Shown: one piece after another, positions 6,488 to 52,949 of the stretch
How positions within the stretch are numbered: the first letter of the stretch is position 1
Layout of the letters: the number at the start of each line of letters is the position of its first letter
Source: a virus
Length of the DNA: 64,000 nt
Direction: 5' to 3' (one strand)
IMG/VR virus record: IMGVR_UViG_3300031993_000066
Location: 4,107-68,106 of that record
The notes under the pieces: generated by a model
What the model was told of the DNA's origin: nothing
The model's database searches: none
What the model saw: only the letters and a program-made list of their open reading frames with translations
Program-made: the position numbers and the translations under genes

Positions 6488-6606
6488 CCTCTTGTACCAT
6501 CCTTTCAGAATTGTGTGTTAAACGCGATTAAACGCCCACAGGACGGCTTTGGCTCCGTCCCGTGGGTGTTTGCTTTGGTGAAGCCCGAACCGGCTCAGAG
6601 GCCGAA

Positions 6607-7074
6607 TCAGGTGTTCCTCAGCAGGGCCTGCAGCTCCGGCGGCTTGTTGACGATGAAGCTCCACGGCCTCTTGTACAGCTCGCCGACCTGCATGTTCTGG
6701 ATGTCGATGTTCCCGTCCGGCACGCAGTCGCGGTACACGACCTGCTCTTCGCTGCCGTCGTAGGGGCTGCGCATCATGCCGCGGAACGTCCACACGGGCA
6801 TCCTGTGCTGGCTCAGGCCCTCCATGAACTCCTGGAAGAACTTGCTGTCTTCCACGATGATCTCGCTGAACGTCAGCGTCACGCGGTAGCTGGTCATCGC
6901 GCCGTGTTCCTGCGCGTCGCCCAGCGGCTGGAACGTCGCGTTGGTGATGGCGACCTGAGACTGGAAATTCTCCGTCGAGACGAGCATGGTGCCGTCTTCG
7001 CTGTACAGAGCGCCGTCTTTGCCCGACATAACCTTGCGGATGTCGGAGACCGGGGAAGTGTTAAGTACGCTCAT
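6607..7074 (-). CDS. Tail tube protein (XkdM-like)
   Basis: 155 aa after sheath; MSGKDGALY...DCVPDGNIDI. Confidence 0.85.
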   Translation of the reverse strand: MSVLNTSPVSDIRKVMSGKDGALYSEDGTMLVSTENFQSQVAITNATFQPLGDAQEHGAMTSYRVTLTFSEIIVEDSKFFQEFMEGLSQHRMPVWTFRGMMRSPYDGSEEQVVYRDCVPDGNIDIQNMQVGELYKRPWSFIVNKPPELQALLRNT

Positions 7075-7095
7075 TGGTCTTTACTCCTTTCTGCC

Positions 7096-8523: not shown

Positions 8524-8524
8524 G

Positions 8525-8734
8525 TTAGTTTACCTTCCTTTCCGCAAATTCCTTGATGATCTTCTTCGCTACCGCGAGGGTGCAACGCTTGATACCGTTG
8601 TACTCAAACGCCGCCGTAGCGATGTCCACGCTGTAGCCGAACAGGGCCGGAGCGTTCGCAGCGATTTCCGCCACGTCGTATTCCTCTTCCTGCACGACAG
8701 GGGCCTCGACTTTCTTCTCAGCCATCGTTTTCAC
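8525..8734 (-). CDS. Small hypothetical protein preceding sheath
   Basis: Packed ORF in tail operon. Confidence 0.65.
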   Translation of the reverse strand: MKTMAEKKVEAPVVQEEEYDVAEIAANAPALFGYSVDIATAAFEYNGIKRCTLAVAKKIIKEFAERKVN

Positions 8735-8740
8735 TCCCTT

Positions 8741-9751
8741 CTAATCCTCGCCACCCGGTTTCTTGTCTTCGCCGGGTGTCGGGTACTCATACTTGTACCC
8801 CTGACTGGTGCCTCCGCCCACGTCCGCCTCGATCTCTGCCTCGAAAACCTCTCTCGGAGGGTTGACAGGGTATGCCTTGTTCAGCACGTCGCCCGTCCAC
8901 TTGTTCCTGAGGTGCGATTCCGGCTGCAGCAGCCCGAAATATCCCGTGGCCTTGATCTGGCCCGTGGTGATGTAGTTCATGTGCGGCTGGACGGTGAAGG
9001 TTTTCAGGAACAGCGGCGATGTGTCTTCCAGCGTGATATGTCCTATCAGCGCGTGGGCCGTGTTGAGCTGGACGAGGTTGTAAAGCCTGTCCGCCGCGTT
9101 CCTGCAATACACATGGCACTCCACGGCAATGTTCATCCATGTGTAGGCGAAGTGCTGCCGTTCCTTTCCCTGCGCTGTCAGCCGCCAGTAGATCGCGGGC
9201 TTTTTCCTTGTCGGTACGAGCCATCCGTCTATGGTGTCTTCGCCTATGACAACCGCGTTCGGCAGCACTTCCTTCGTCCATGCGTTGAGGCCCTTGATCG
9301 GGTCGGGGTACATCGTGTACTGGCATGGACACGCCGTTACGTCGAACAGGACGGTTACGCCGACTGTGCGTACCGTTTCTTCCTGTTGCTTCTTTATCTC
9401 GAATGCGTCCGATCTCACCCACGCGAAGCAGTATGCGAAATCGTCCGCCTGTGCAAAGGTGGCATGGAGGAGTTCGCGCAGTCTGGCCTCGATGTCTTCC
9501 GGCTCTGCGCCAACCTGTGTATCGCACCAAACATTGACCGTCAGCACTCCGCTCGTATTCCTCGCCGGATTCTCCACCATGTCAAGCGTGTAATCGATAC
9601 GCGGGTACTGGATTTCACTCTGCCACCTCGCGTTCTCTGCCGACGCTGGGCGCTGGTAAAAGACTGCCGCTCCGCCGTTGTACGTCGCCGTCAAGGCTAT
9701 CAGCCTTTCATCGTTTCGCAGGCGGCGATATATCATCTGGTACAGTTCCAT
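8741..9751 (-). CDS. Putative tail terminator/neck protein
   Basis: 336 aa; position between neck genes and sheath. Confidence 0.55.
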   Translation of the reverse strand: MELYQMIYRRLRNDERLIALTATYNGGAAVFYQRPASAENARWQSEIQYPRIDYTLDMVENPARNTSGVLTVNVWCDTQVGAEPEDIEARLRELLHATFAQADDFAYCFAWVRSDAFEIKKQQEETVRTVGVTVLFDVTACPCQYTMYPDPIKGLNAWTKEVLPNAVVIGEDTIDGWLVPTRKKPAIYWRLTAQGKERQHFAYTWMNIAVECHVYCRNAADRLYNLVQLNTAHALIGHITLEDTSPLFLKTFTVQPHMNYITTGQIKATGYFGLLQPESHLRNKWTGDVLNKAYPVNPPREVFEAEIEADVGGGTSQGYKYEYPTPGEDKKPGGED

Positions 9752-9766
9752 GCGCTTTCCTCCGTG

Positions 9767-10165
9767 TTAGATACTGATGTGCCACGGCTCTTGGTAGATG
9801 GCTTCGATCTCTGCCTGCGCTGCGTCGATGATCGGCTGTCGGAACGGTCTCGCTGCCATCTTGCTTGTGCCCTCTTCGAGGTAGTTCGCATAGAAAGCAT
9901 TGGACATGATTCCGGGCAGGTGCGCGTCGTTCGTCAGCGGTGTGAAGCTGGTATCCCTCAGGTGCCCGCTCCAATTCGCCGGTGGTGCACCGGGTGCGGA
10001 TGCCTGATGGCTTCCGTACCGCCTGCCGCCGCCCTGCCCGCGCAGGACTTCGTTCTTCGCGTTCAGCAGCGCGTTCGCTGCCCTCACAGCTCTGCTCGGC
10101 AGCTCCGCCTCTACCTGCGCCTGTACCTTTGCGGGTATGCCGGTGATGTCAATTTTGAAGCCCAT
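9767..10165 (-). CDS. HK97 gp10-like neck protein
   Basis: ASAPGAPPA...YLEEGTSKMAARPF motif. Confidence 0.8.
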   Translation of the reverse strand: MGFKIDITGIPAKVQAQVEAELPSRAVRAANALLNAKNEVLRGQGGGRRYGSHQASAPGAPPANWSGHLRDTSFTPLTNDAHLPGIMSNAFYANYLEEGTSKMAARPFRQPIIDAAQAEIEAIYQEPWHISI

Positions 10166-10529
10166 TGACGTCGCCTCTTTCCTCGCAGTAGTACGTCGTG
10201 AACACGCTCATCTCTCCGTGGTCTTGCACTGCCTGTACTCGGAAGAATCGGGTTTCCTCTTCGCCTTTCAGCAGTGCGAATATGTCGTTTTCCTTCGCTG
10301 CCGGCATCCCTGTGTGGAAGATGGTGTGTGTGACCGTCACTCCCATCTGCCCGTACCGCTGCTGTTCTTCCGGCTTCGCCACCGACAGGATGCAGCGCCG
10401 CTCTCCGATCTTCTCCGGGGTTCCGATTCGTTCACGGCCTCTGTCACTCGTGGAGGTCTCCGCCCTGTAGATGTTGAACAGCTTTGGAAAGGCTTCCGGC
10501 CTCTTCATCCCGATTGCGCCGTAACGCAT
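10149..10529 (-). CDS. Head closure/head-tail adaptor protein
   Basis: Likely start MRYGAIG at 10529; VTHTI, YYCEER; position. Confidence 0.65.
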   Translation of the reverse strand: MRYGAIGMKRPEAFPKLFNIYRAETSTSDRGRERIGTPEKIGERRCILSVAKPEEQQRYGQMGVTVTHTIFHTGMPAAKENDIFALLKGEEETRFFRVQAVQDHGEMSVFTTYYCEERGDVNGLQN

Positions 10530-10972
10530 CACGGGTCTCCCTCTTCGTAGTCCGGGTACGGCGGCTGGACATACGGCGATTTCTGCATTCCTCTGTGGAA
10601 GTAGTGCCCGCCGTCGCTGCTCTGTACGCTCTCGCTTACGGCTCCCGATACCGGCAAGCTCGCCTCGATTGCAGCTTCCTTCTCCAGCTTGTCCCTGAGC
10701 TTCATCCAGCGGTCTGCCCGCTGGGAGAGGTCGAAGGATGTCCCGTCGTTCTTCCAGTTCGTCTCGTAGCTCAACCTCATGCACACCGCATCCGCGAGCT
10801 GGAACAGCTTCCGCTTCCATCTCGCCGTTGTGCTGAGGATGGCTCCGATCTCTTCGTCCGACAGGTAGCAGCTCTCCGCTTCGCCCTCGACGGCGATGTC
10901 TCCGAGTTCAAACCTTGCGCGGCTCACGCTCTCCGTTGCGATCTCCGCCGGGTTGTAGGTGTATGTCGCCAT
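10529..10972 (-). CDS. Head-tail connector protein
   Basis: TYTYNP...RFELGD...LSDEEI; position after capsid. Confidence 0.7.
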   Translation of the reverse strand: MATYTYNPAEIATESVSRARFELGDIAVEGEAESCYLSDEEIGAILSTTARWKRKLFQLADAVCMRLSYETNWKNDGTSFDLSQRADRWMKLRDKLEKEAAIEASLPVSGAVSESVQSSDGGHYFHRGMQKSPYVQPPYPDYEEGDP

Positions 10973-10975
10973 TCC

Positions 10976-11254
10976 TTACTTCCCGCCCTTCTTCGCGGGC
11001 TGCTTCTTCGCTGCCGTGGCATCCGCGTTGTTTAACGCCCGTTTATCGCCCTCAGAGCCGTTCTTCCTGCCGGTGCTGGTATTCGTGCCAGTCTCCGCTT
11101 TCGGAGGCTCAGGAGGTGTATCAGGGACGCTCTCGATGGTGCCGTACTTGACGAGCGTCCTCATCCGGCTGCTGTCGACCAGCTCTTCCGGGATTTCGTC
11201 CCCGACGTAGAACTGCCTGCCGCCGAACTTGCACGGCCTCTTTGCCTTGATCAT
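10976..11254 (-). CDS. Small head-region protein
   Basis: Start MIKAKRPCKFGG with AGGGGGA RBS. Confidence 0.6.
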   Translation of the reverse strand: MIKAKRPCKFGGRQFYVGDEIPEELVDSSRMRTLVKYGTIESVPDTPPEPPKAETGTNTSTGRKNGSEGDKRALNNADATAAKKQPAKKGGK

Positions 11255-11435: not shown

Positions 11436-12458
11436 TTAGGCCACGCAGTCCTTCAGGAACACGCCCAGCTCATTGCAGATGATCTTGGGAGTGTAGCTGC
11501 ACAGGCCCTCGATGAACTCGGTGTGAGTGCCGGGTTCGCCCTCCCACTGATCGAACGCGAGGTACTGCCCGTTGCCGAGCATATCCCACGCGAACGTGTA
11601 GCCAGCGGAGGCTTCGTCCACGGACGGGGTCGGGTTGCTGTAGCACAGCAGGGCACTCTTCGGGTTGCAGATGAAGTCCATATCGGTGGTGCCGATAGCG
11701 CCCTTGTTGTAGGTGCTGTTCAGCACGACCACGCGCTCGATCTCCAACAGCTGCGCCAGCACGTTCGTGTTGATGGTCGCGGGGTTGGCGGTGGAGCCGC
11801 TGTACTTCACGCGGTCGAGGATGTCCGGGTTCTGCTTCAGGCCCTCGTAGGCCTCGACGCCCAGCGCCAGCACGTTCGGGCGACGGCGACCTTCCTTCAT
11901 CATCGCGGTGCGCAGCCCGCCGAAGAAGGAGATGGCGTCGAAGTTGGAGTTGTCGAACTGCCAGAACTCGTTCGTGCTGGGGGTGGTGGCCTTGCCAGTC
12001 CACTCGTTCGTCCAGATGCCGCTCTTGAAGTAGGCCTCCGCGAAAATCCTGTCCATGTGGAGCTTCATCTGCTCCGTGGCCAGACGCACCTTCGCCCTGC
12101 GCGGGTCGTTGATGCCGGGGGTGTTGCTGCGGGTGTAATCCTGCGTGGCGATCTGATCGAGACCGATGATGACCTGATCGACCTCGCAGGTGTAGGTATC
12201 GGTGTCGTGCCCGAACACCATCGGCGTCACCTTGCCGAACTCAGGCTTCCGCTGGACGTTGTCGCGGGCCAGGTCGCCCTTGTCGAAGATGTAGTACAGG
12301 CCGGTGCTCAGGCCGACGGGCAGGATGGGGAAGATGAACGGGCTGACAAACCAGTCATCCGGCTGGAACTGCGCCACGCTCATGTTGGTGAGGTACATAT
12401 TCGGCTTCCATCCGTTGCTGATGCTCTTGGCGATGGAAGCAGTGCTCTTCGCTCTCAT
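11436..12458 (-). CDS. Major capsid protein
   Basis: 340 aa after scaffold/cement; YLTNMSVA, RPNVLALG motifs; biased codon use. Confidence 0.88.
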   Translation of the reverse strand: MRAKSTASIAKSISNGWKPNMYLTNMSVAQFQPDDWFVSPFIFPILPVGLSTGLYYIFDKGDLARDNVQRKPEFGKVTPMVFGHDTDTYTCEVDQVIIGLDQIATQDYTRSNTPGINDPRRAKVRLATEQMKLHMDRIFAEAYFKSGIWTNEWTGKATTPSTNEFWQFDNSNFDAISFFGGLRTAMMKEGRRRPNVLALGVEAYEGLKQNPDILDRVKYSGSTANPATINTNVLAQLLEIERVVVLNSTYNKGAIGTTDMDFICNPKSALLCYSNPTPSVDEASAGYTFAWDMLGNGQYLAFDQWEGEPGTHTEFIEGLCSYTPKIICNELGVFLKDCVA

Positions 12459-12907: not shown

Positions 12908-14089
12908 TTACTTGCGGCTCTTCTCGTAGGCTTCGAGCAGGTCGGGATGGTCGATGCAGGCCTTGTCGATGGCCTGCGCGTAGGTCATCCCGCTGTTGCT
13001 CTTGACGATTTCCTGCGCGGCGACCTCGATCTTGCCCCACGCATCGTCGGTTTCGCTGCCGCCGTTGCCGCGCTTGCCGATCTCGCCGAACACACCGCTC
13101 TTCTCGACGGTCTGCACGGCGCTGTCCAGCACGGCGATCATGTCCGCGTAAGCGGTGCCGCCAGCGGCTTTCAGGCCTTTCAGCACCGGGGCCAGCTCTT
13201 CCGGCTTCTTCCCGATGATGGTGTAGCGCTTCGCTACCTCCATGATCTCACGCTCTTCCGCGTCTTCGCGGAATTTGCGCAGGGTCTCGATCTCCGCCTT
13301 GACAGCGGGGTTCAGGCCCTTGTAGATGTCATCGCCGCCGGGTTCCTCCGTGGTGTCCACGGCGTTGGCCTGCGCCTGCTGCGCGGTGGCCTGCTGCTCT
13401 TCCTCAGCCACGCCGTAACGCTTCTGCAGGTCTTCGAGCTGCGTCCGCTCTTCCGGGGTCATGGATTCCGTATTGAATTTCATGTCAATCTCTACTCCTT
13501 CCTGATGGGTCTTCTCCACCGTGTCGGTGGTGTCTGCCGGGGTCTGTTCTTCCTGCGCGGATTCCGCCGGAGCTTCGGACGTGGGCTGCTCACCTGCTCC
13601 CTCATTGCCATTTTCGCCCTCTTCGCTCTTGCTGACAGCCGTGCCGTTGAACATCCCGGCTATATCGGTTTTGATCGCTTGCGCGGCCTGATCTGCCGTC
13701 TCGACGATCATACCGGCTTTCTGTTCGTCGGTGAGCTCTTCGTCGCCGACGATGGAGCGGAGGCTGTCGCCCAGCGCATCGCTGATGCGGTATATCCGCT
13801 CAAAGGTCTTTCGTGCGCCGTCGATGGATGCGAATGTCTTCGCTTCCTTCTCCACCTCTTCGTCCCCTTTGGGGGACAGGTGGAACATCTTTGCGACGGC
13901 CTGCCCGATTCGCGCAAAAAAAGCAGTGTCATTGCTGACCTGCTCTTCGATGGTTTCCTGGGCCTCTTCTTCGTCCGCCCTCTTTGCGAGCTTGATGTGT
14001 GCGTGCTGGTTCGCGCCCTGATCTACGACGCTCACGCTCTTGATCTTCAAGTCGCGGAGGACGGTTGGCCCTTTCTTATTCCTGCTCAT
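12908..14089 (-). CDS. Scaffolding protein with N-terminal prohead-protease-like segment
   Basis: N-terminal LRDLKIKSVSVVDQGAN, then acidic helical region. Confidence 0.65.
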   Translation of the reverse strand: MSRNKKGPTVLRDLKIKSVSVVDQGANQHAHIKLAKRADEEEAQETIEEQVSNDTAFFARIGQAVAKMFHLSPKGDEEVEKEAKTFASIDGARKTFERIYRISDALGDSLRSIVGDEELTDEQKAGMIVETADQAAQAIKTDIAGMFNGTAVSKSEEGENGNEGAGEQPTSEAPAESAQEEQTPADTTDTVEKTHQEGVEIDMKFNTESMTPEERTQLEDLQKRYGVAEEEQQATAQQAQANAVDTTEEPGGDDIYKGLNPAVKAEIETLRKFREDAEEREIMEVAKRYTIIGKKPEELAPVLKGLKAAGGTAYADMIAVLDSAVQTVEKSGVFGEIGKRGNGGSETDDAWGKIEVAAQEIVKSNSGMTYAQAIDKACIDHPDLLEAYEKSRK

Positions 14090-14558
14090 CGCCGTTTTCC
14101 TCCGTTTCTCCTACCGGCGTTCGTGTAGCCTCTCCCTCGATGCTGAACATGCTGTAGGTGCCGTCTTTGACCTTCTCCCAAACTGCATCGTCTGTGATTT
14201 TCAGGCCCAGCCACCACCCGCTGGGGAGCGTCCCTTCCGGGATCCCCATCGCTTTCAGCTTGTCCGGCGTGAAGACCACGCTCTCGACGAGTACGCCGAT
14301 GCCTCTCCGCTGGTGCATCTCTCCACCGTCCCGGAAGAACAGCACGTAGTTGTACACCGCGTCCTCCAGTTCTTCGATTTCGAGGATGTCCCGCTGGTAG
14401 TCTTCGACGGTTGTCCCGTCGGCGAGCGCCGCTACCGACGCCCATCCAAAAACCATGTGCCGCTCATCGTCCGCTTTGGCTACGGAAAAGAGCCGCCCTT
14501 TTTCGGGGTCGGCTCTCGGCTGCTGTTGGTAGAATTTCGCAAAGCTATGATCTTTCAT
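14076..14558 (-). CDS. XkdF-like prohead serine protease
   Basis: VFGWASV, GEMH, LVESV, WWLG, VWEKVKDGTYSMFSIEG. Confidence 0.85.
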   Translation of the reverse strand: MKDHSFAKFYQQQPRADPEKGRLFSVAKADDERHMVFGWASVAALADGTTVEDYQRDILEIEELEDAVYNYVLFFRDGGEMHQRRGIGVLVESVVFTPDKLKAMGIPEGTLPSGWWLGLKITDDAVWEKVKDGTYSMFSIEGEATRTPVGETEENGDEQE

Positions 14559-14574
14559 CGCTTCTTCTCCCTTC

Positions 14575-14952
14575 TCAGTTGATGCTCGCCTGCTGTCTGT
14601 ACCAAACGTACACATCGTCAAGGTCGTTCAGCATCTCGCTGACTTCCGTCCGGAGCGACGGCCTGATGCGGGCCTCGAACTGCTCCATCGTCAGCTCTGT
14701 CAGCGTGATGTCCCAATTCAGCTCTTTGGCGCGGAAAACTATCCCGTCGGCCAGGTTCTTTTTCACCTTGCCGGGGAGCAGGTGCCCGCGCTCTGCGCCC
14801 AAATCAAAATAGAACAGGCTGATCTCCCCGTCATCGTTGTCGATGAACGCCTTGATCGCTATGGTTGGTACGGTCTCTTCGTTGTCTCTCAGGTTGAGCT
14901 TCCTTGTGCGGTCTTCGATGTCCACCACATAGGGCTTGCGTCTGTCCAGCAT
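14575..14952 (-). CDS. Hypothetical protein, candidate immunity protein for MuF toxin
   Basis: 125 aa, TAATG-coupled to the MuF fusion stop. Confidence 0.5.
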   Translation of the reverse strand: MLDRRKPYVVDIEDRTRKLNLRDNEETVPTIAIKAFIDNDDGEISLFYFDLGAERGHLLPGKVKKNLADGIVFRAKELNWDITLTELTMEQFEARIRPSLRTEVSEMLNDLDDVYVWYRQQASIN

Positions 14953-17900
14953 TACACCATGCCGCCTCCCACCTTAATCAGAGTTTCCAGCCGGATTCCG
15001 TTGATCTGGGAGATGCCGACTGAGTGCAGCCTGTCGATCAGGGCTTGCCTGTCCTTCGACGGTACGCGCACCTCCGTCAGCGTGTCCATTGGCAGCGTCT
15101 TTCGGAAACACAGCTCATTCCGCTTCTCGTAGTATTTGCTGGTTGCCTTGAAATGAGCTTCCGTTCCCAGCCTGCTGCTGAAATCTCCCATTTCTGTCGT
15201 TCCGAACTTGTCACCAGTATAAGCGAACCAGTCTGTTCTTTCAAGCGCCTTTGTGTCGAACACGAAAACGTAATCCCCGAACCACTTGTACCGGGGTTCG
15301 TTTCCGACCTGATTGTTGAACACGATTCGGGTGAAAACGCTGTCCGCGCCGCCGGTGCCGATGTCGGACATCGAGCTTGCGCCTGACGTAAAGACGCCGC
15401 GCCCGTATCGGTTCGTTGTCGCCAGCAGCTCTCCGCTCGTGAGGACGCTCGCCGCCTTGTTTATATCGTCGCATTCGTGGTAGAGGTAGGCCGCTCCGTA
15501 CTTCTTCGCCAGCGCCACGTTTTCCGGGTCGTACAGTGTCCAGTAGCCCTCCGCGACTTTCCGTACCTGTATGGCGTCAAGCCGCTTTTGCGTGATGCCG
15601 AGCTTCCTCAGCACTCCGTCGATCTGCGCGTCCGTGACCGTCGCCACGTTCAGGCTCGCCGCCTCTGACGGGGCCGTCTGCCAGATGACGCGCATCTTTT
15701 TATAGCGGTCGAGTGCCGCCGCCGTCGCATCGTCGGCGATGTCTGCGATTCCCGCCTGCTGCATGAGGCTCTGTATCTTCCGGGCCGCGTCCGTGCCGTT
15801 GCTGGCCTGCACCCGGATGTTGAACTGGCCCATCAGTGCGCGTCCGCCGTTCTCTGCTCCGCTGCCCGCCACGATGATGATATCGTCGCCCTGCCGGATG
15901 TACTTCGTGCCGAGGCTGAATTTCTGCGTGGTGCTGCTCAGGTTGAGGACCGGCTGCGTGTAGTCGATGGTACCGACGGCTTCGTTCCACCGCCAGTAGC
16001 TGCCGCTGCTCTGCCCGTTCATGTTTTGGAGCGTCTGCTCCCACCGGGTCTGCGTCAGCTTGCCCGACAGCTCGTAGTATTCTTTGCCGTCGATGGTGAC
16101 CTTCCGCAGGTTCGTCTCCAAACCTTCCAGCGCCCTGTCATCGGAGATCAGCGCCACGCCCTTCGGAGTGCTGCCTTTCAGCGTTCCGTCGATGTCCTTC
16201 AGCGCGTCAGAGAGCTGTGTCACGCCGCCGAACTGACCGCCGCCGGTCTGTGTCCCGGCCTTGCGTCCGCGCCGCGTGGCGTACTGCTGATGCGCCCTGT
16301 TGAGCGCCGTCTGGAACACCTGCTGGGACTGTGACGGGTCGCTGATGACGGCGATCAGCTCATCCTTGTGCAGGATGCCGAAGTTCTTGATGCCCTTCGC
16401 CTTTGCCATCGCGTGAAGGTCTGCGAGGCTCAGGCCTTTCAGCGTCGCCGGGGTGATCGTGCTGGTAATCGGTGATGGCTGCGTGAACACTGCCGCCGCT
16501 GCGTTGTCCGCGAACTGGAAGACGGTCTTCGTGCCCTTCCGCTGTGTCAGCAGGTCGGAGTAGAACGTCTCGAAGGTTGCCCGGACATTCTGCTTGCGGA
16601 ACACGATCTGATCGAGCAGGTGCTCCGCCTTTGCGCCCTTGCCGTACAGCGATTCCGCGTAGCTGCGGAATATCTCCCTGTACTCCGCGTCCGGCACGGC
16701 CTCGATGCGCTTGATGTAGGCCAGCGTGTCGTTCAGCTTGATGTCGATCTCGCCGTTGGCGAACCGCCGGTAAAGGGTGTTGTAGACCGGCTCCGTTTCG
16801 TGGTAGATACTGTTCGGGTGGTAGGTCAGGCTCATGGTCTGCGAACCGCTCTGCGACATGTAGCGGAATGCCTGCTCTTTGTCCACGCCGATCAGCTTTC
16901 CATCCTGCGTCAGCACAAAATTCCTGCCGTGGCAGTCGTAGTTGCCGAGCAGCCAGTCGGTGACGTTCTCCCTCTGTAGCTGGGACACGATATCCGGGTC
17001 GAGCGGCCCGCCCGCCTTTTGCCACGCTTCCAGATTGAAGCTCGTATCGAGGTTGGTGATCCTCCGCTGCGCCGCGCCGAACATCTGCCCTTTGCCGGGG
17101 ACGTCCACGTACCCGGTGCCAACCTGCACCGCGCTGTCCGGGTCTACGATGTACTGCAGCTTGTACCCGGCTTCCTGCGCGTAGGCCCGGAACTCTTCCG
17201 TGACGCCGCTCTTACTCTGCGCGGGCTTGAATATGAATTCGTCGCCGCTCTGATCGTCTTCGACTAGGTGCATCTCGCCTGTTCCTCCGAGATGTAACGG
17301 CTTTTTGTAGTTCATCTCCCCGGTGATGTCGATGCTGTCCGGGATGTCAACGGTGTCCGGGGCCTGCGTCGGCTGCGCCGTCGTGGTGTCCACCCAATTC
17401 GTCGGGGGCAGCACGTTCACGTAGTTCACCGCGCACCTGCACCGGGGGTGCGCCGGGGGAACCAGCACGCCGATTGAGAACGGGACGTCCATCTCCGTTG
17501 TCTCTTTGTCGATCTTCCCGCAAACCTCGCAGACGCGCTCGTCAAAAGCTGTCATCCACTTCTTTTGCGCTCCGCCGATCAGCCCATCCTTGATGCACTG
17601 CTCCATGTAGGCCTGCTGCCCGTAATTGTAGGCGTAGGCCATTTCCGTGATGGCGATGGTCTCCGCCCTTGTGCGATGCAGCCTCTCCGCGTACTTCGCC
17701 TGAATCGCCCGCGCCTCATCCTTTGAGTAGCCGTCTGCGATTGCCTGCTGGTATCGGTTGTAAGCTGCCTGCGCCTGCCGGGTTGTCAGGCCTACCGTGG
17801 GCCGGATGGCCTTTGCCAGCTCTTTCACGTCCATCGTCTCGGAGAAGCTGGCCTGTCGCACGAGCACGTTGATCGCCTTGTACTGCTCTTCGCTGACCTC

Positions 17901-18236
17901 TCGAATCAGCTTCCCGCCCTGCGAGGCAATGAAGCTGTCCATGTAGGGGTAGTTCAGGCTCTTCGCGCCTATCCCGAACAGCGCCTGCATTTCGTGGGCG
18001 CTGCTGTCGATGGCCTGCTGCGCCAGCGGCGCGTAGCCGTTGATAATGAATTTGCTGTAATCCTGCTGCCACTGTGCGAGGTAGCCGGGGTCGAGCTGTC
18101 CGGCGTAAATGGCCTCGCGGATTTCCTTGTACGTGATCGCCTGCTGCTGATTCTTCCACGTCCGCGCCAGCACGGTACAGAGCTTTGGGTTGCTGTAGTC
18201 TATGAAGCCGTTTAAGGTCTGTTTAACGTCCTTCAA
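14952..18236 (-). CDS. MuF/SPP1 gp7 minor head protein fused to kinase-like and ART-like domains
   Basis: RAETIAITE, KKWMTAFDERVCEVC, PPAHPRCRCAV (MuF); LGGTGE/FKP/DWLLGNYDCHGRNF/VDKEQAF (atypical kinase); LYH...VLTSGELL...VFTR...NEL (ART-like). Confidence 0.85.
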   Translation of the reverse strand: MKDVKQTLNGFIDYSNPKLCTVLARTWKNQQQAITYKEIREAIYAGQLDPGYLAQWQQDYSKFIINGYAPLAQQAIDSSAHEMQALFGIGAKSLNYPYMDSFIASQGGKLIREVSEEQYKAINVLVRQASFSETMDVKELAKAIRPTVGLTTRQAQAAYNRYQQAIADGYSKDEARAIQAKYAERLHRTRAETIAITEMAYAYNYGQQAYMEQCIKDGLIGGAQKKWMTAFDERVCEVCGKIDKETTEMDVPFSIGVLVPPAHPRCRCAVNYVNVLPPTNWVDTTTAQPTQAPDTVDIPDSIDITGEMNYKKPLHLGGTGEMHLVEDDQSGDEFIFKPAQSKSGVTEEFRAYAQEAGYKLQYIVDPDSAVQVGTGYVDVPGKGQMFGAAQRRITNLDTSFNLEAWQKAGGPLDPDIVSQLQRENVTDWLLGNYDCHGRNFVLTQDGKLIGVDKEQAFRYMSQSGSQTMSLTYHPNSIYHETEPVYNTLYRRFANGEIDIKLNDTLAYIKRIEAVPDAEYREIFRSYAESLYGKGAKAEHLLDQIVFRKQNVRATFETFYSDLLTQRKGTKTVFQFADNAAAAVFTQPSPITSTITPATLKGLSLADLHAMAKAKGIKNFGILHKDELIAVISDPSQSQQVFQTALNRAHQQYATRRGRKAGTQTGGGQFGGVTQLSDALKDIDGTLKGSTPKGVALISDDRALEGLETNLRKVTIDGKEYYELSGKLTQTRWEQTLQNMNGQSSGSYWRWNEAVGTIDYTQPVLNLSSTTQKFSLGTKYIRQGDDIIIVAGSGAENGGRALMGQFNIRVQASNGTDAARKIQSLMQQAGIADIADDATAAALDRYKKMRVIWQTAPSEAASLNVATVTDAQIDGVLRKLGITQKRLDAIQVRKVAEGYWTLYDPENVALAKKYGAAYLYHECDDINKAASVLTSGELLATTNRYGRGVFTSGASSMSDIGTGGADSVFTRIVFNNQVGNEPRYKWFGDYVFVFDTKALERTDWFAYTGDKFGTTEMGDFSSRLGTEAHFKATSKYYEKRNELCFRKTLPMDTLTEVRVPSKDRQALIDRLHSVGISQINGIRLETLIKVGGGMV

Positions 18237-18253: not shown

Positions 18254-19663
18254 TTACCGCTCCAGCCGTTTCTTCGCTCTCTCCGCCTGTTTCGCGTCCT
18301 CAGCGTCTTCTTCTTCGATTTCCTCCGCGTCGATGTCTCCGCCGGTCTGCTTTTCCCTTTGGTCGCGCTGCTGCTGCCTCCGAGCGTCCCTGTCGAACTG
18401 CTGCGCTTCCAGACGTTCCGGCAGGTTGCCGGTCTCTCGCACGTAGTCTTCGAGGGCTTCGTCCGGCATGATGACGCCGCACCCGGTCAGCTCTTTGATG
18501 TACGTGCTCAGGTCTTTCAGGTTCGGCGCGTCTGCGCTGCTGTGCGTCAGCGTCGGATATTCGGTGATCCCGCTGAAATGCTCCGCGTTCATCCCGATCA
18601 GCCGGGGAATGCCCTGACTGTTGAACACCTCGCAGATGATGTCGAGGTAGCTGTCCAGCGCCACGCTGAACAGGTCAGTCTTGTCCGCGCTCAGCGCGAA
18701 GCTGCCAACTCCCTGATGGCCCAGCAGCAGGAAATCCGCCATCACGCTCATGGCGATTCGTGTGTCGTACCTCTCGATGATCGCGTTCGTGTCAAACTGC
18801 CGCCTGCCTCCACTGGTGAGCAGCGTGAACTCCCATCCAGCCGGCAGCACCAGTCCCTCCGTCGCGTCGCGGCGCACGTTGCGGACGATTGTCTCCGCCC
18901 GCTGGAATGCCTGCACCATCACCGGGTCATCCTGATTCCAGATGTCCCACGTCTCAGGCGGATGCAGAATCGGCAGGCCTGCGAGGTCTCTTTCCAGCCC
19001 CATGCCCTCGATCTCTTGAATCCTGCGCTTGAAATACCACGAGCGGTAGGCGCTGCGCAGGATGCTCCGCCCTTCCGGGTTGGCTTTCCTGCTCTTCGTG
19101 CGGAAGTGCAGGGCTTTCCCGATGGGAACCGTCGCCATGACGTAGCGCGGGGGAGGGAGCTGCGTCATCCCGGTCAGGTTGTCGTAATCGTCGTACTCCC
19201 AGCGGAAGAGCGTTTCCTGCGCTCTGATCGGGAGTTTCTGCCATCCGATCAGCCCGTCAGTGTACTTGCTTTTCTGTCGGGGGTCGTTCACGTTGCCGGT
19301 GCGCCGCTTGTACACGATTTCGTGGTAGCTCCACCCGAACGGCAGGAAGGACAGAATTTCGCTGATGGTGTCCGTCCACGTGTCCTGCATGTCGTTCATG
19401 CAGCTCTCCACAAACTCCGCGCACTCTCTGTCCTTCGCGCTGTCGCCGCCGGGCTGGATGCTCCAGCTCGTTTTGCGGATGAGCATCTCGATGGTGTACA
19501 GAATCGCTCCGCACACATCGTCGTTTTCGCTCATCTCCCTGTAGACCTCGATGCCGTGCTTGCCCTGCAGCTCTTTGAGGAACTCTTCGGCAAAGATTCC
19601 CGCGTATCGCCTCTGTCCTATGCTGCCATATTCCTTCATGCTCTGCGGCATGTCTCTCTTCAC
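18254..19663 (-). CDS. Portal protein
   Basis: 469 aa after terminase; NPEGRSILRSAY...ERDLAG, GSFALS motifs. Confidence 0.9.
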   Translation of the reverse strand: MKRDMPQSMKEYGSIGQRRYAGIFAEEFLKELQGKHGIEVYREMSENDDVCGAILYTIEMLIRKTSWSIQPGGDSAKDRECAEFVESCMNDMQDTWTDTISEILSFLPFGWSYHEIVYKRRTGNVNDPRQKSKYTDGLIGWQKLPIRAQETLFRWEYDDYDNLTGMTQLPPPRYVMATVPIGKALHFRTKSRKANPEGRSILRSAYRSWYFKRRIQEIEGMGLERDLAGLPILHPPETWDIWNQDDPVMVQAFQRAETIVRNVRRDATEGLVLPAGWEFTLLTSGGRRQFDTNAIIERYDTRIAMSVMADFLLLGHQGVGSFALSADKTDLFSVALDSYLDIICEVFNSQGIPRLIGMNAEHFSGITEYPTLTHSSADAPNLKDLSTYIKELTGCGVIMPDEALEDYVRETGNLPERLEAQQFDRDARRQQQRDQREKQTGGDIDAEEIEEEDAEDAKQAERAKKRLER

Positions 19664-19664
19664 C

Positions 19665-21110
19665 TCATCTCCGCTGCCACGGGCTTATTCTGTCCGCGCC
19701 GTAATTCGTCGGTGGCAGGCTTGACGCCGTGCCTGCTGCCATCCAGTTGATCGCCTGCGTCATTGCGTCCACATCGTCATCGTGCGCTGCGTTCGGGAAT
19801 GCCGCGCACTCTTCCAAAAAATCGTGAATCCACGGTGCTATCCGTGGATGTGGCAGGTAGATGTTCCCTGCTTCCGCGTATGGGGCGACGGCCTGCGCCC
19901 TCACCACCTTGCCGCCTTGCGGGTCGATGGGTATCAGGCCGGAAATCTCTTTCCTCAGCAGCTCGATGACCGCCGTGCCGTTCGCCTTGTCTTCGACGAG
20001 CTTCGCTCTTGCGCGTGGGTGCTTCGCCGTCAGCGTTCGGATGCTCCGCATCGTGTCGCTGATTCCCATGTGATCGTGTACCCTGTCCACGAGGTAGTAG
20101 TTCGGGCCGGTGCGCTGCCATACGTGCCCTGCCACAAAGTCGTGGTTGTCGCCGTCCTTGAACGTACAGTCCCAGCTCTGTACCTGCATCCCCGCTTCCG
20201 GGAGCACTTCGTAGAACTGGAACCAGCTCCGTTTCAGGATTCCGCCCTCCGCCGGTGCCGGTCTCTGCTGGTAAAGCCCTGCGAATGAGTAGCTGCCAAC
20301 CTTGCCTTTCTGCTTCCGCATCCACTCTTCGTCGTACCCGTGCTCAGGCCACAGGGCTTCGCCCTCTGTCCGGCCGAGCAGGTCTTCCGCGTCTTCCGCG
20401 ATGGCCGGTAGCCGCAGTATCGTCCAGTCCTCCACGTCGCAGTATTCCGGGTTCAGCAGGCGCCCAACCAGATCGTCTTCGTGCCAGCGCGTCATTATCA
20501 CGATCACTGCCGCGCCGGGGTGTGTACGGGTTGAGAACGTCGCCGTGTACTCATCCCATATCCTGTCCCTCATGGTTTTGCTGTCTGCTTCCTGCCGATT
20601 CTTCACCGGGTCATCGATAATCAGCAGGTCAGCGCCCTCGCCGGTTGCTGCGCCGCCGAAGCCCACGGAGATCATTCCGCCCCTGCGCCTGTCCAGATCC
20701 CAGTTGGACGCGCTGTGGTTGATCTGGCTCAGGCCGATGTCCCACAGCCGCGCCCCGAATTCCTCTATCTTTTCGCGGTTCTTCCTTCCGAATTTCTGCG
20801 CGAAGGTGTCGTTGTAGCTGACCTCCATCACGCGCTTGTCCGGGAACCGTCCGAGGTAGTAGCTGGGAAAAGTCTCTGTCACCGCCATGCTCTTTCCGTG
20901 TCGGGGTGGCATGCAGATAATCAGACGCTTTTCCTCTCCGCGAATCACCGCGTCCAGCTTTTCACAAATGAGCCGGTGGTGCCTGCCGGGAATCCATGCT
21001 CCGTGGTGGACGTACTCGCAGTACCGCAGGTAGTGCCGCCGCGCCCATTCCCTCTCGAAGTCTGCGCGGGTCGCAATCGGGAGCTTTCCTGCCCTGCGTA
21101 CTTCGCTCAT
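19665..21110 (-). CDS. terL: Terminase large subunit
   Basis: MPPRHGKS Walker A, LLIIDDPVK Walker B, MTRWHEDD, SWD, FPNAAHDDDVDA. Confidence 0.96.
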   Translation of the reverse strand: MSEVRRAGKLPIATRADFEREWARRHYLRYCEYVHHGAWIPGRHHRLICEKLDAVIRGEEKRLIICMPPRHGKSMAVTETFPSYYLGRFPDKRVMEVSYNDTFAQKFGRKNREKIEEFGARLWDIGLSQINHSASNWDLDRRRGGMISVGFGGAATGEGADLLIIDDPVKNRQEADSKTMRDRIWDEYTATFSTRTHPGAAVIVIMTRWHEDDLVGRLLNPEYCDVEDWTILRLPAIAEDAEDLLGRTEGEALWPEHGYDEEWMRKQKGKVGSYSFAGLYQQRPAPAEGGILKRSWFQFYEVLPEAGMQVQSWDCTFKDGDNHDFVAGHVWQRTGPNYYLVDRVHDHMGISDTMRSIRTLTAKHPRARAKLVEDKANGTAVIELLRKEISGLIPIDPQGGKVVRAQAVAPYAEAGNIYLPHPRIAPWIHDFLEECAAFPNAAHDDDVDAMTQAINWMAAGTASSLPPTNYGADRISPWQRR

Positions 21111-24603: not shown

Positions 24604-25044
24604 TCACGCCTCCGATGCTCTCTTCCGCGCCGGTCTCACCTGCGCCTCGAAAATTCGGTCTCTCAGGCTTGCGCTGCTCAGGCCGTGATCTCGCCTGTTG
24701 TACACAATCGGGATCCCGCGCCTCTCGCAAATGTTCTTCCCCGTGAAGGGTTTGTCCCGGTATTCCTCCCCGACAAACCTCACGTCGTAGTCCAGCATCT
24801 CCAGCGCCAGCGCGAGGTCTTCTTCGCCCTCCAGCGGTATCACCTCATCCACGCCGTCGCAGTGCGCCACCCGGAACCACCGCTCGAACACGCTTTCGAT
24901 GGGCTTGTTTTTGAGCGGTCTGTCCGTCGGGTCGCAGATAAGCCCCACGATCAGGTAGTCGCACTGTTCGGCGCATTCCTGAATCATGGCGATGTGTCCG
25001 GGGTGGAAAAGGTCTCCCACCACCGACGTGAATCCTATGACCAT
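24604..25044 (-). CDS. Cytidylyltransferase (TagD-like HxGH family)
   Basis: DLFHPGH, CDYLIVGL, ER, VDEVIP, R.HGLSS. Confidence 0.88.
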   Translation of the reverse strand: MVIGFTSVVGDLFHPGHIAMIQECAEQCDYLIVGLICDPTDRPLKNKPIESVFERWFRVAHCDGVDEVIPLEGEEDLALALEMLDYDVRFVGEEYRDKPFTGKNICERRGIPIVYNRRDHGLSSASLRDRIFEAQVRPARKRASEA

Positions 25045-51950: not shown

Positions 51951-52949
51951 TCAGCGCCGCGCTGCCTTGTCAAGCTTCCGCCTTGCCTCATCCGCCTTTG
52001 CCCGTTCCCGTTCAAGCTCCGCCGCGTATGCCAGATCGTCCAGCTCCGCTTTCAGCCCTTCGTCCAGCGCATCGACCCAACTCTCCGGGATTTTGTGGAA
52101 GCCGCACAGAGCGCCCGCCAGCCCGCCGGTGATCGCTCCGATGGTGTCCGCGTCCCCTCCGAGGTTGACCGCAATCTCCACGGCCTTGCGGAAGTCCGTG
52201 GAGTAGCGCGTTGCCTGCCTGATGCTCCATACCGCCGCGAGGAAGCTGTCCTTCACGTAGCCGGTGGGATTCGGCGTGAATCCGGGCACCATGGCCCGGC
52301 GGTAGTCCGTCTTCCTGATCTCGTACTGGAAAACGTCCCATCGGGAATCGAACACTTTCCTGTTCAGCATCCTGCCGATGATCCTGCTGTACAGCTCGCA
52401 GGCCTCCGCTGCTTCCGGGTCGTAGTGCGTCATCCGGCTTATCGTCCCGGCCCAATGAGCGATGTTGTCTTCGCTGTAATAGTAGCAGGGGACGTAGGCC
52501 GTGCGCATCAAACTTCCGTTGCCTGCGCTGCGCCCTCCGAGGTTGATGTGGGCTTCCTTCGCTCCGTCAAGCCAGTCTTTCTGCGACGGCAATATGATGT
52601 TCCCTCTCTCCCTTGCGAGCCACTGTGCCCTGTTGATGCTCAGTCCGCAGGTGCTTCCGATGTCCTTTGGCCCTCCGTTGGCCCACTTGATGAAGTTCTC
52701 TCCGATGCTCTGCACCGGGGCGTTCGGCTGCTCGCAGATGCCTCTTGCCACGCAGAGCGTCATCTGCGTATCGTCGGTCACTTCGCCGGGGCGGACGTTC
52801 AGCCATCCTCCGCCGATCATCTCCGTTACGCGCCCGTGCTGCTCTTTGATGCTCTCTGCGCTCATAAACTCTACCGGCGCTCCGAGCGCGTCCCCCACGG
52901 CCACGCCGTAGAGGACGCCCCTGATCTTATCGTGCTGCATGTGATTCAT
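51951..52949 (-). CDS. ADP-ribosylglycohydrolase (DraG/ARH family)
   Basis: G.AVGDALGAPVEF, TDDTQM, GNGSLMR, TH, GGDADTIGAITGGLAGA. Confidence 0.93.
   Translation of the reverse strand: MNHMQHDKIRGVLYGVAVGDALGAPVEFMSAESIKEQHGRVTEMIGGGWLNVRPGEVTDDTQMTLCVARGICEQPNAPVQSIGENFIKWANGGPKDIGSTCGLSINRAQWLARERGNIILPSQKDWLDGAKEAHINLGGRSAGNGSLMRTAYVPCYYYSEDNIAHWAGTISRMTHYDPEAAEACELYSRIIGRMLNRKVFDSRWDVFQYEIRKTDYRRAMVPGFTPNPTGYVKDSFLAAVWSIRQATRYSTDFRKAVEIAVNLGGDADTIGAITGGLAGALCGFHKIPESWVDALDEGLKAELDDLAYAAELERERAKADEARRKLDKAARR

Follow-up and report, generated by a model that had tools for sequence, protein, structure and literature searches.

What would a bacteriophage do with two putative enzymes built into one protein of its head? 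The question is raised by a gene in a 64,000-nucleotide stretch of viral DNA (hereafter the window), which spans bases 4107-68106 of the 68,106-bp IMG/VR record IMGVR_UViG_3300031993_000066 (CheckV completeness 100%). A single open reading frame (ORF) of 1094 codons, located on the minus strand at 14952..18236 with its stop codon at 14952-14954, encodes in order a MuF-type minor head domain, an atypical protein-kinase-like domain, a Rho_N-like motif, a domain here termed MID and a C-terminal domain with the fold of ADP-ribosyltransferases (ART). We consider it probable, though not strongly so, that the gene product is a dual enzyme carried in the phage head and released with the DNA, and that its ART module is toxin-like and is checked by a coupled binding protein and an arginine-type eraser.

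An earlier reading of the sequence by a model (the original prediction) had assigned MuF, kinase, Rho-N-like and ART parts to this one gene, and the open frame and the domain evidence agree with that assignment. Every motif that it quoted is present in the translation: LGGTGE, FKP, GNYDCHGRNF and VDKEQAF in the kinase part, and LYH (residues 918-920), VLTSGELL (931-938), VFTR (967-970) and NEL (1040-1042) in the ART part. Its proposed test, whether or not the predicted folds are those of a kinase and an ART, was run by structure prediction and fold search, and both calls survived. The start codon of the gene is TTG, with a GGGAGG Shine-Dalgarno sequence 7 nt upstream, and 17 nt separate it from the stop codon of the portal gene. 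At the other end, the TAA stop codon shares a TAATG overlap with the ATG of an ORF of 125 residues. The ribosome-binding site and the homologues described below support the frame as drawn.

A five-part head protein conserved from end to end

With residues 290-1094 as the query, 178 proteins were found at E <= 0.001 (8000 candidates scored). Among the 120 relatives listed, lengths ranged from 778 to 1153 residues, nearly all between 1050 and 1150, and the query was covered from end to end. Identity ran from 94% down to 38% and the order kinase-Rho_N-MID-ART was constant throughout; the source names, given for a few relatives, were Clostridia, Dysosmobacter and Negativibacillus. Since the whole architecture is conserved, the picture of a MuF stem with exchangeable tips does not apply. 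The expectation that it would belong with the MuF polymorphic toxins in this sense, with a C-terminal domain that varies between close relatives, gave way to a conserved five-part protein whose architecture varied at the level of distant relatives only (e.g., MuF-MID-ART without the kinase). The layout does correspond to that of MuF polymorphic toxins (Jamet et al. 2017), with MuF at the N-terminus, a toxin domain at the C-terminus, a downstream ORF of less than 150 residues and a temperate phage as the carrier.

Residues 1-278 (17403..18236, minus strand) comprise a MuF or SPP1 gp7-type minor head domain. Pfam PF04233 (Phage_Mu_F) matched residues 160-270 with 48.2 bits against a cut-off of 29.6 (E 2.1e-12) and matched all 36 aligned relatives. 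The PHROG head-morphogenesis families phrog_28652 (E 5.3e-50) and phrog_2468 (E 6.3e-36) span residues 2-278, and the NCBIfam model phageSPP1_gp7 scored 37.3 bits, slightly below its cut-off of 39.65. The MuF assignment of the original prediction is upheld by the Pfam match and by the terminase-portal-MuF-protease-capsid module in which the gene lies. MuF and gp7 proteins are portal-bound head components (PMC5576092). One relative of 1447 residues with the full MuF-kinase-Rho_N-MID-ART architecture (P0144) had a weak Intein_splicing match (29.6 bits, cut-off 35.8) at residues 188-435, in or just past the MuF domain.

Residues 599-631 (16344..16442, minus strand) are read as a Rho_N/SAP-type helix-extended-helix motif, as had been suggested. 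Pfam Rho_N (PF07498) scored 24.2 bits in the window copy against a cut-off of 24.9, and it was matched at E <= 1 in 35 of the 36 aligned relatives (best E 8.8e-9), with SAP matched in 7 of the 36. The full-length family profile had a sole match among PDB sequences, the N-terminus of Rho (E 0.02), and phmmer with the whole protein against PDB sequences gave no match at E <= 1. Rho_N/SAP-type motifs bind nucleic acid.

The C-terminal domain has a DarT-like fold

The ART domain occupies residues 886-1094 (14955..15581, minus strand) and is preceded by MID at residues 684-885 (15582..16187, minus strand). An AlphaFold model of residues 680-1094 showed one rigid two-domain unit (pLDDT 95.1, pTM 0.92). 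When the model was compared with 48,161 PDB representatives by VIA-align, the four best matches of the ART domain were DarT enzymes: E. coli DarT1 (Z 10.3, root-mean-square deviation 3.1, 165 residues aligned), Thermosipho DarTG (Z 9.2), Thermus DarT (Z 8.5) and M. tuberculosis DarT (Z 8.2), with 154-165 residues aligned across the DarTs. They were followed by Tpt1 (Z 7.0), OspC3 (6.7), CopC (6.2), CteC (5.8) and SopF (5.8), and every one of the 11 chains at Z >= 5 is an NAD-using enzyme of the ART fold. Foldseek against PDB, with the ART part (about residues 903-1094), also placed DarT on top (7omy, E 1.2e-3; 8baq, E 2.1e-3; probability 1.00; TM up to 0.61 on the target), with SopF and Tpt1 next. 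The ART call, thought to be the weaker of the two enzyme calls, is thus better supported than was expected.

In the viral structure library BFVD, 12 entries matched the MID-ART model at E <= 0.001 and every one is uncharacterized; they include betabaculovirus ORF32, iridovirus 422L, giant-virus proteins and a protein of Mycobacterium phage Larenn. An entry named minor capsid protein matched more weakly (E 6.5e-3). A canonical R-S-E site composed of R943, S954 and E1041 was considered and rejected, as R943 lies after beta2 and not on beta1, and the R-S-E toxins were far below DarT in the VIA ranking (Scabin 4.3, pierisin 3.8, CARDS 3.3, MTX 3.3).

Residue conservation was counted over 155 ART domains, of which 47 belong to proteins with the kinase and 108 to proteins without it. 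Six residues (E1041, R1000, D1002, D1009, G962 and G1012) were present in all 155; R943, N1040 and F968 were present in 154, D958 in 153, S954 in 152 and R970 in 150. The conserved Glu that ART-superfamily enzymes have at the start of a late core strand is found here as E1041, which aligned with the strand of the catalytic Glu of DarT and is the candidate catalytic Glu. The pattern fits a working enzyme with NAD-binding details unlike those of the textbook H-Y-E or R-S-E sites.

By sequence the domain is not a DarT; it is DarT-like by its modelled fold. The ART-domain profile had no match among PDB sequences at E <= 10, and the best Pfam DarT score among the distant carriers sampled was 18.1 bits, over the Glu region of a Chlamydiae protein. 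A DarT comparison set was assembled from 3 loci and 117 further proteins and anchored to the Thermus and Thermosipho structures; a DarT gene search in 101 genomes of one family found 1. Aligned by hhalign with these 120 sequences, the 155 ART domains gave E 0.0018 over domain positions 35-190 and DarT positions 1-179, with H920 placed on the HITH of DarT beta1, N1040-E1041 on the catalytic AE and the middle region at low confidence. In global mode, hhalign gave no meaningful alignment with DarT. The key residues are H17, R35, R52/D54, S63, N104 and E152 in DarT1 and R51, Y71, H119 and E160 in DarT2 (PMC11543638). The His and the Glu alone could be mapped onto the ART with any confidence; F968 is a candidate for the Tyr equivalent and R943 or R970 for the Arg equivalent, all from the low-confidence middle region. 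Judged by eye, the family motif R-T-D-W-[YF]-A seems to resemble T-D-[RL]-[NH]-A of DarT, with an aromatic residue at the base-reading fourth position.

The stretch before the ART, called an unknown region in the original prediction, is present as described and can now be recognized as a folded, conserved alpha+beta domain that travels with the ART. MID (about residues 684-835, plus helices to about 885) had PDB matches of Z 4-5 at most (CYTH/TTM-like proteins, type III secretion system chaperones, START and YbjN), and an ESM Atlas search gave no usable match. Its invariant residues are D699, R711, E722, K726, W732, R808, R849 and W852, and E704 is kept in at least 90% of the sequences.

A wider MID-ART family in phages and bacteria

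The ART-domain profile, run against 1.84 billion representatives, matched 2332 clusters at E <= 0.001, including 1584 at E <= 1e-10 and 364 at E <= 1e-30. Domain make-up was scored for 148 carriers among the 150 listed of the 2332, with hidden Markov models (HMMs) built from the 1094-residue protein's own domains. MID directly preceded ART in 85 of the 148 listed carriers; a kinase was detected in 21, MuF in 14, and MuF-MID-ART or MuF-ART without a kinase in 6. ART was found alone in 54 of the 148, which is an upper bound as many of these are gene fragments. On the MID and ART parts of 20 sampled carriers Pfam gave nothing except one sub-threshold DarT match; otherwise it reported MuF, Rho_N and a weak intein in the MuF-bearing carriers and one sub-threshold zinc ribbon. 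PHROGs matched nothing on MID or ART in 9 sampled carriers (one irrelevant match), and tblastn of MID-ART against the deposited phage collection found no match. MID-ART is a family without a Pfam or PHROG model.

The genomic setting of the family was surveyed in 68 loci from species-representative genomes. All 14 Bacillota carriers with a complete gene in the locus had the MuF form, 13 of them with the kinase, and in 2 further Bacillota carriers the gene was incomplete, owing to a contig end or to a break in the frame. Most of the other loci were from Candidatus Saccharibacteria and other bacteria of the Candidate Phyla Radiation (CPR), with single cases in Mycolicibacterium, Mycobacterium, Gammaproteobacteria, Chlamydiae, Synergistaceae and Desulfovibrionaceae. 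These non-Bacillota carriers have MID-ART or ART in proteins of 480-5500 residues without MuF or kinase. Two loci of Candidatus Shapirobacteria (L114, 3-10748; L118, 3-16511) contain giant open frames that extend past the locus ends (3582 residues or more in L114, 5503 or more in L118), with the ART internal at about residue 2650. Within the conserved five-part protein family, the ART was always accompanied by MID and by a small partner gene.

A small partner predicted to cover the ART active site

The small partner gene of the window is the translationally coupled 125-residue ORF at 14575..14952 (minus strand). Sixty-seven viral loci extend 900 nt or more beyond the MuF gene. Every one of them has an ORF of 108-140 residues whose start is at the MuF stop codon or no more than about 30 nt away, and all 67 ORFs are homologous to that of the window (jackhmmer E <= 7e-24; 57 by a single phmmer pass). 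Plain tblastn detected the small ORF in 31 of 63 loci. No Pfam, PHROG or NCBIfam family was found for it. Among the genome loci, an HMM of the small ORF placed it directly downstream of the ART in 13 of 13 kinase-bearing carriers, in the one MuF carrier without a kinase and in 29 of the 43 other loci that offered 500 nt or more of sequence for it, including those of Saccharibacteria, other CPR bacteria and a Gammaproteobacterium. Because the small ORF also follows MID-ART genes without kinase or MuF, its genetic partner is the MID-ART module rather than the kinase or the head.

The complex of MID-ART (415 residues) with the 125-residue protein was predicted in three runs, with a separate alignment for each chain and 3 controls. 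The ipSAE values were 0.86, 0.88 and 0.87, and the best of the 3 controls scored 0.00; the pass mark, reached by 58 of 80 solved complexes and 2 of 110 mismatched pairs, is a rough guide here as the alignments were self-made. The pLDDT of the partner was at least 90 and contacts agreed between runs to at least 97%. The predicted ART contacts are residues 921-924, 927, 940, 949-958, 960-961, 964, 968, 983-986, 1008-1011, 1013-1017 and 1038-1039, and the interface also takes in a few MID residues. This footprint covers the strand after H920, the S954/D958 loop, F968, D1009 and the residues just before N1040-E1041. On the partner, the most confident contacts come from a conserved loop (R-G-H57) in which H57 is nearly invariant. 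The models support the view that the 125-residue protein occludes the ART active site, as a predicted immunity protein would.

A linked hydrolase and the nature of the ART target

A second candidate antagonist is an ADP-ribosylglycohydrolase (ARH) encoded about 34 kb from the MuF gene at 51951..52949 (minus strand; longest ORF to 53243), here considered a candidate eraser. It matched Pfam PF03747 at E 5e-64, and its best PDB relatives were DraG (E 4.8e-37) and Tri1 (6dre, E 3.6e-29). The NCBIfam models DRAG (E 1.1e-52) and Tri1, an ADP-ribosylarginine hydrolase (E 2.3e-41), both matched below their equivalog cut-offs. Of 20 related viral records, 14 encode an ARH. Among the 12 records with a completeness of 90% or more the count is 11, the exception being 93% complete.

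Outside the phages the linkage is closer. An ARH homologue was present within the +-8 kb flanks of 18 of the 68 genome loci (15 at E <= 2e-13), all 18 of them carriers without the kinase. In these non-phage loci the ARH usually directly adjoins the ART and the small ORF, which gives evidence independent of the co-occurrence in phages. A compact chromosomal cassette of MID-ART, small ORF and ARH was seen in Saccharibacteria, other CPR bacteria and a Gammaproteobacterium. It is exemplified by L099 (ART 7053-8918, small ORF 8924-9316, ARH 9385-10506, Pfam E 9.7e-76) and L143 (ART 6537-9584, small ORF about 9618-9968, ARH 10086-11108, Pfam E 3.2e-55), with further cases in L091, L093-L096, L102, L104, L110, L116, L128 and L129. 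In L099, where the stretch of interest spans 7053-11010, the next gene has a CdiA_C toxin domain (Pfam).

The closest functional parallel that we found is Bxa, a prophage protein of Bacteroides stercoris with an N-terminal MuF, a middle domain and a C-terminal ART. Bxa ADP-ribosylates arginine promiscuously and is neutralized by BAH, an adjacent ARH1-like hydrolase, and also by Bsi, a small binder modelled in the active site (PMC11699363). The likeness to the Bxa-Bsi-BAH system lies in the MuF, the middle region and the C-terminal ART, in a small non-enzymatic partner, and in an ARH-family hydrolase that is genetically linked (in the same genome in the window phage, adjacent in the CPR and gammaproteobacterial cassettes). 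The differences are that the window protein has a kinase and none is reported for Bxa in the available part of PMC11699363, that BAH is adjacent to Bxa whereas the window ARH is distant, and that the window ART has a DarT-like fold without a Pfam model; the comparison with Bxa is by description, not by sequence.

DarT is the closest solved fold, and its Glu strand and beta1-alpha1-beta2 region align with the window family at profile level, but the setting differs. DarT is a stand-alone toxin of about 200 residues, whereas the window ART follows MID on a head protein of 1094 residues. The partners of DarT are the DarG macrodomain or NADAR, whereas those of the window ART are a small binder and an ARH. 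In addition, the beta1 His is variable in the window family, the base-reading position is aromatic and the Pfam DarT model failed.

These comparisons bear on what the ART would modify. Macrodomain and NADAR proteins are known erasers of DarT products, and neither Macro nor NADAR was found in the window phage genome. An eraser of the DraG/Tri1-like arginine class, rather than a macrodomain or NADAR, favors protein arginine over nucleic acid as the ART target. A target in nucleic acid (single-stranded DNA bases or RNA/DNA phosphate ends, as for DarT and Tpt1), with the Rho_N/SAP-like motif helping in targeting, would suit the closest folds (DarT, Z 10.3-8.2; Tpt1, Z 7.0), the presence of that motif in 35 of 36 relatives and the occurrence, by eye, of T-D-W-[YF]-A where DarT has T-D-[RL]-[NH]-A, the stretch with a base-contacting residue. 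It would also suit the BFVD matches, as the baculovirus ORF30/32 and iridovirus 422L group is related to DarT-like DNA-modifying ARTs (PMC9503650). We nevertheless regard this alternative as unlikely. Besides the class of the linked eraser, the position at which DarT reads the base with His or Asn would be aromatic here, the Rho_N motif is absent from most MID-ART carriers scored, and Bxa, which has the same immunity logic, modifies arginine (PMC11699363).

The kinase domain and its recurrence with a second ART family

The kinase-like domain comprises residues 300-585 (16482..17339, minus strand). An AlphaFold (AF2) model of residues 296-592, built from an alignment of 77 rows, had a pLDDT of 93.5 and a pTM of 0.90. 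Foldseek returned at least 500 PDB kinase matches at E <= 0.001; the lowest E was that of PknB (6.7e-7) and the best superposition that of H. pylori CtkA (TM 0.51). In the VIA ranking, 26 PDB chains were at Z >= 8, led by PI4K type II alpha (Z 15.6 and 15.2), CtkA (13.8) and Fam20 (12.6-11.7) and including actin-fragmin kinase (10.8), CotH (10.5), HipA (10.1) and HipT (9.8).

The motifs are a Gly-rich LGGTGE at residues 317-322, FKP at 336-338 with K337, GNYDCHGRNF at 431-440 and VDKEQAF at 451-457 with D452. K337, D434, H436, N439 and D452 were invariant in both the 36-sequence alignment and a 24-sequence kinase alignment. From canonical kinase motifs we take K337 to be the ATP-binding Lys, D434, H436 and N439 to form the D-x-H-x-x-N catalytic loop, and D452 to be the metal-binding Asp. 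The fold and these invariant residues place the domain in the atypical branch of bilobal protein-kinase-like folds. On the window copy, Pfam PI3_PI4_kinase (PF00454) gave E 0.06 and 13.7 bits against a cut-off of 27.1, and HipA_C (PF07804) gave E 0.11 and 12.6 bits against 30.5; neither cut-off was reached. Weak PI3_PI4_kinase matches were obtained in 14 of 36 relatives (best E 8.3e-4). The faint PI3_PI4_kinase and HipA_C signals fall exactly on the D-x-H-x-x-N loop. The description of the domain as a PI3/PI4K-HipA-like kinase is thus right at the level of fold (PI4K-II/CtkA/HipA) and does not extend to membership of those Pfam families. PI4K type II, CtkA, Fam20, actin-fragmin kinase, CotH and HipA/HipT share the kinase-like fold and the D-x-H-x-x-N loop with the window domain at Z 15.6-9.8; they differ from it in having 10-15% identity and in that the window domain is part of a predicted virion protein. 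As the fold neighbours other than PI4K are protein kinases by their PDB titles, a protein substrate is more likely. The function of the kinase is the least constrained part of the whole picture.

A kinase-domain profile matched 64 proteins of 152-504 residues, including stand-alone forms of about 261-276 residues with 34-45% identity, and Pfam annotated nothing over the kinase stretch in any of the 64. An IMG/VR scan for stand-alone kinases found the MuF fusions only. In the metagenome scan, 30 of 63 loci had the kinase without MID-ART, and in 22 of these the ORF was 562-664 residues long, with the kinase C-terminal and an N-terminal half (about 290 residues) that was not recognized (L206 and about 21 similar loci among L207-L227, L233 and L237). 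One of them, L206 (6128-7831), is a cellular locus with an ABC transporter, a histidine kinase and a histidine phosphatase (His_Phos_1) as neighbours and no ART nearby. The idea that the kinase family is exclusive to ART proteins was discarded on account of these ART-free loci.

Searched by tblastn against deposited phages, the kinase was found in 12 Mycobacterium phage records. McProf gp54 (1185 residues, BK061309.1, L173 3306-6863) was deposited as a 'minor capsid and ADP-ribosyltransferase domain fusion protein' and is flanked by the portal and a 122-residue ORF of no family. It has Pfam VG15 at the N-terminus, the kinase at about residues 480-735 with its catalytic motifs intact (E 1.8e-38 with the HMM built here) and ADPrib_exo_Tox (PF03496, E 4.7e-16) at the C-terminus; a domain search found no MID or DarT-like domain in it. 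Onyinye gp16 (1340 residues, MN813687.1, L174 3155-7177) was deposited as 'ADP-ribosyltransferase'. It adjoins the terminase on one side and a 132-residue ORF of no family on the other, and has the kinase (E 7e-25 with the HMM built here) and PF03496 (E 6.6e-8). McProf carries an ARH about 25 kb from gp54; no ARH was found in the Onyinye genome. Neither annotation mentions a kinase. Both proteins resemble the window protein in being large packaging- or head-module proteins with a homologous kinase, a C-terminal ART and a small ORF that follows, and McProf also in its distal ARH. They differ in that their ART is a classical R-S-E exoenzyme without MID or a DarT-like module, and McProf gp54 in having VG15, not PF04233, at its N-terminus. 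By these domain matches, one kinase family is joined to two different ART families in phage packaging-module proteins.

Few precedents for such fusions were found. A zeta-toxin-like P-loop kinase of a different fold is fused to MuF (PMC5512222), and no other MuF-kinase fusion was found in the literature available to us. The same paper, on polyvalent proteins, describes a clade of truncated Ser/Thr/Tyr kinases in elements of Verrucomicrobia, Chlamydia and Bacteroidetes. The MuF-toxin survey PMC5576092 never uses the word kinase in its main text. No literature was found on a MuF protein with the window kinase or on the kinase of McProf and Onyinye, although supplements (for PMC5576092 the toxin domain lists of Tables S4-S7) might list such families. 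In T4 Alt and in MuF toxins (EFV toxin; Jamet et al. 2017; Iyer et al. 2017, 2022), an ART packaged in the head has been proposed or shown to reach the host along with the DNA; MuF toxins generally use MuF as the carrier, and a small downstream ORF is common among them, as in the window.

A model for the action of the protein

In the mechanism that we favor, the MuF/gp7 domain would place the protein in the head beside the portal. The cargo would be an active protein kinase of the PI4K-II/CtkA/Fam20/HipA class, a Rho_N/SAP-like nucleic-acid-binding motif and the MID-ART toxin module, with catalysis by E1041 in the DarT-like fold. In the producing cell, the coupled 125-residue protein would cover the ART active site and the DraG/Tri1-like hydrolase of the phage would strip off any transferred ADP-ribose. 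After assembly the protein would exit the capsid together with the DNA, and proteins of the newly infected cell would be ADP-ribosylated, most likely on arginine, and phosphorylated. Enzymatic activity, the arginine acceptor, packaging and injection are the steps of this scheme that we infer.

Several observations weigh against the scheme. DarT and Tpt1, the nearest folds, act on nucleic acids and not on proteins. No PDB match of the ART domain by Foldseek reached E <= 0.001, and VIA commonly gives best Z values of 7-8 to models that match nothing clearly, which makes Z 10.3 good, not overwhelming. Pfam DarT (PF14487, cut-off 22.5 bits) had no match at E <= 10 in the window phage genome and reached E of about 0.1 in just 4 of 36 relatives. 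At profile level, the alignment of 155 ART domains with 120 DarT sequences had an hhalign probability of 15%, and an alignment of 26 ART domains with 3 DarT sequences gave E 0.09 at a probability below 1%, pairing the NELCFR strand with the AEILI strand of DarT and nothing else. The original prediction had named a catalytic His and Glu; the Glu is conserved across the family, and the beta1 His is not. H920 was found in 77 of the 155 domains (67 of the 108 from kinase-free proteins and 10 of the 47 from kinase-bearing ones), and the NAD-binding mode may differ from that of known ARTs. The complex score for the small protein is a measure of model confidence. The phages are interrelated, so that the ARH co-occurrence among them is not independent evidence, and an arrangement with the ARH adjoining the MuF gene in phages was rejected, none being found within +-10 kb in any of 80 viral loci. 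Finally, the kinase family has cellular members in non-phage contexts without an ART.

Where the beta1 His is replaced in kinase-bearing proteins, the substitutions are S, A, T or C. The window copy keeps H920, and its subclade is among the few kinase-bearing ones that do.

The variable His raises a further alternative, that one or both domains are catalytically dead scaffolds, for instance enzyme-derived proteins that are head-internal or bind DNA, and that the small ORF is an assembly chaperone. The position of the small ORF inside the head-assembly module is consistent with such a role, and no family model recognizes either enzyme domain at its curated cut-off. Both domains, however, keep invariant polar residues at the expected catalytic positions across 37-94% identity. 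The predicted interface of the small protein covers the conserved ART site, and outside the phages, in loci without head genes, MID-ART is still found together with the small ORF and the ARH. We regard the scaffold explanation as very improbable.

Genome context and time of action

The gene lies in a packaging and head module that is encoded on the minus strand throughout. The order is large terminase (19665-21110; Terminase_6C and 6N), portal (18254-19663; Portal_Mu, E 1.2e-37), the 1094-residue gene, the 125-residue ORF, an XkdF-type prohead protease (14076-14621; Peptidase_S78_2, E 7.2e-24), a phrog_17741 protein (12908-14089; E 2.3e-78) and the major head protein (11436-12458; phrog_1005, E 4.8e-68). 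Portal and terminase were also matched by PHROG (phrog_113, phrog_38). The placement of the MuF gene between portal and prohead protease was kept in all 63 related loci with enough downstream sequence.

The phage is a temperate myophage of Clostridia; a tail sheath gene identifies it as a myophage. Of 96 relatives found in IMG/VR, 80 were retained, and 2 related viral records bear the class provirus. No match to the gene was obtained by megablast among 50,697 phage records. In species-representative genomes the full architecture was found in Christensenellales, Oscillospiraceae, Oscillibacter, Flavonifractor, Dysosmobacter, Thermoanaerobacterium, Dethiobacter, Halanaerobiales and Tissierellales. 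These genes sit inside large bacterial contigs (L082-L089 and others) and are therefore parts of prophages.

A prophage setting allows another reading of when the protein acts. It could be a toxin or fitness factor like Bxa that acts on competitors or other cells after lysis, or late in the producing cell, with MuF as an inherited carrier. Bxa is described as acting after release from cells (PMC11699363), the relatives of the window gene are prophages in bacterial genomes, and the CPR cassette of MID-ART, small ORF and ARH is chromosomal, in one case beside a CdiA_C toxin-domain gene. The constant placement between portal and protease argues the other way, as do the portal-bound position of MuF/gp7 proteins in the head (PMC5576092) and the need of an enzyme with a cytoplasmic target, and with no export signal detected, for a delivery route. 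We consider action after lysis quite unlikely as the explanation of the protein, although it and injection may coexist.

Other features of the window phage and its relatives were observed. One viral contig of 75.9 kb contains the MuF-kinase-ART gene twice, at a spacing of about 50 kb (L043 and L053); it may be a concatemer or have been assembled through a circular permutation. A reverse transcriptase (RVT_1, E 3.7e-19) is encoded at 58936-60126 of the window (minus strand), close to the right end of the phage, and could be part of a diversity-generating retroelement or another reverse transcriptase system. Four further genes on the minus strand encode a lysin-like protein with the three parts PG_binding_1, Peptidase_C39_2 and Glyco_hydro_25 (57027-58577), an APH-type phosphotransferase (25035-26111, E 3.7e-6), an SMC/AAA_15-like ATPase of 656 residues (40992-42962) and a DUF932 protein (49552-50643).

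Implications

MuF-carried toxins, head-packaged ARTs and a MuF-ART with two immunities (Bxa) are already known. As far as our literature searches reach, there is no earlier description of the ART family and its MID partner, of the kinase in tandem with it, or of the recurrent pairing of kinase and ART. What is new is an ART family of DarT-like fold with more than 2000 clusters in phages, Clostridia prophages, Saccharibacteria and other CPR bacteria, mycobacteria and proteobacteria. The fixed partners of the ART are MID, a small protein predicted to bind the active site and a DraG/Tri1-like eraser. An unannotated atypical kinase is fused upstream, and it recurs with a different ART in cultured mycobacteriophages annotated for the ART alone.

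The kinase family has been joined to different ART families at least twice, in Clostridia phages and in mycobacteriophages, which suggests a pairing of kinase and ART. It is conceivable, though we hold the idea tentatively and think it rather doubtful, that the two work as a pair in a two-enzyme entry weapon and that MID-ART, binder and ARH form a new and widespread toxin-immunity-eraser cassette. If so, phosphate and ADP-ribose might be placed on the same host target, beyond the reach of any single host eraser, or the kinase might disable host reversal or sensing of ADP-ribosylation. The cassette, with 2332 clusters and abundant in Saccharibacteria, would then have as its catalytic domain a DarT-fold enzyme whose substrate has changed from DNA to protein arginine.

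McProf and Onyinye are culturable systems for the kinase-ART pairing. If the activities are confirmed, the window protein would be a tractable case in which two different protein-modifying enzymes are delivered by a phage as parts of a single virion protein, and a test case for a change of substrate on a DarT-type scaffold.

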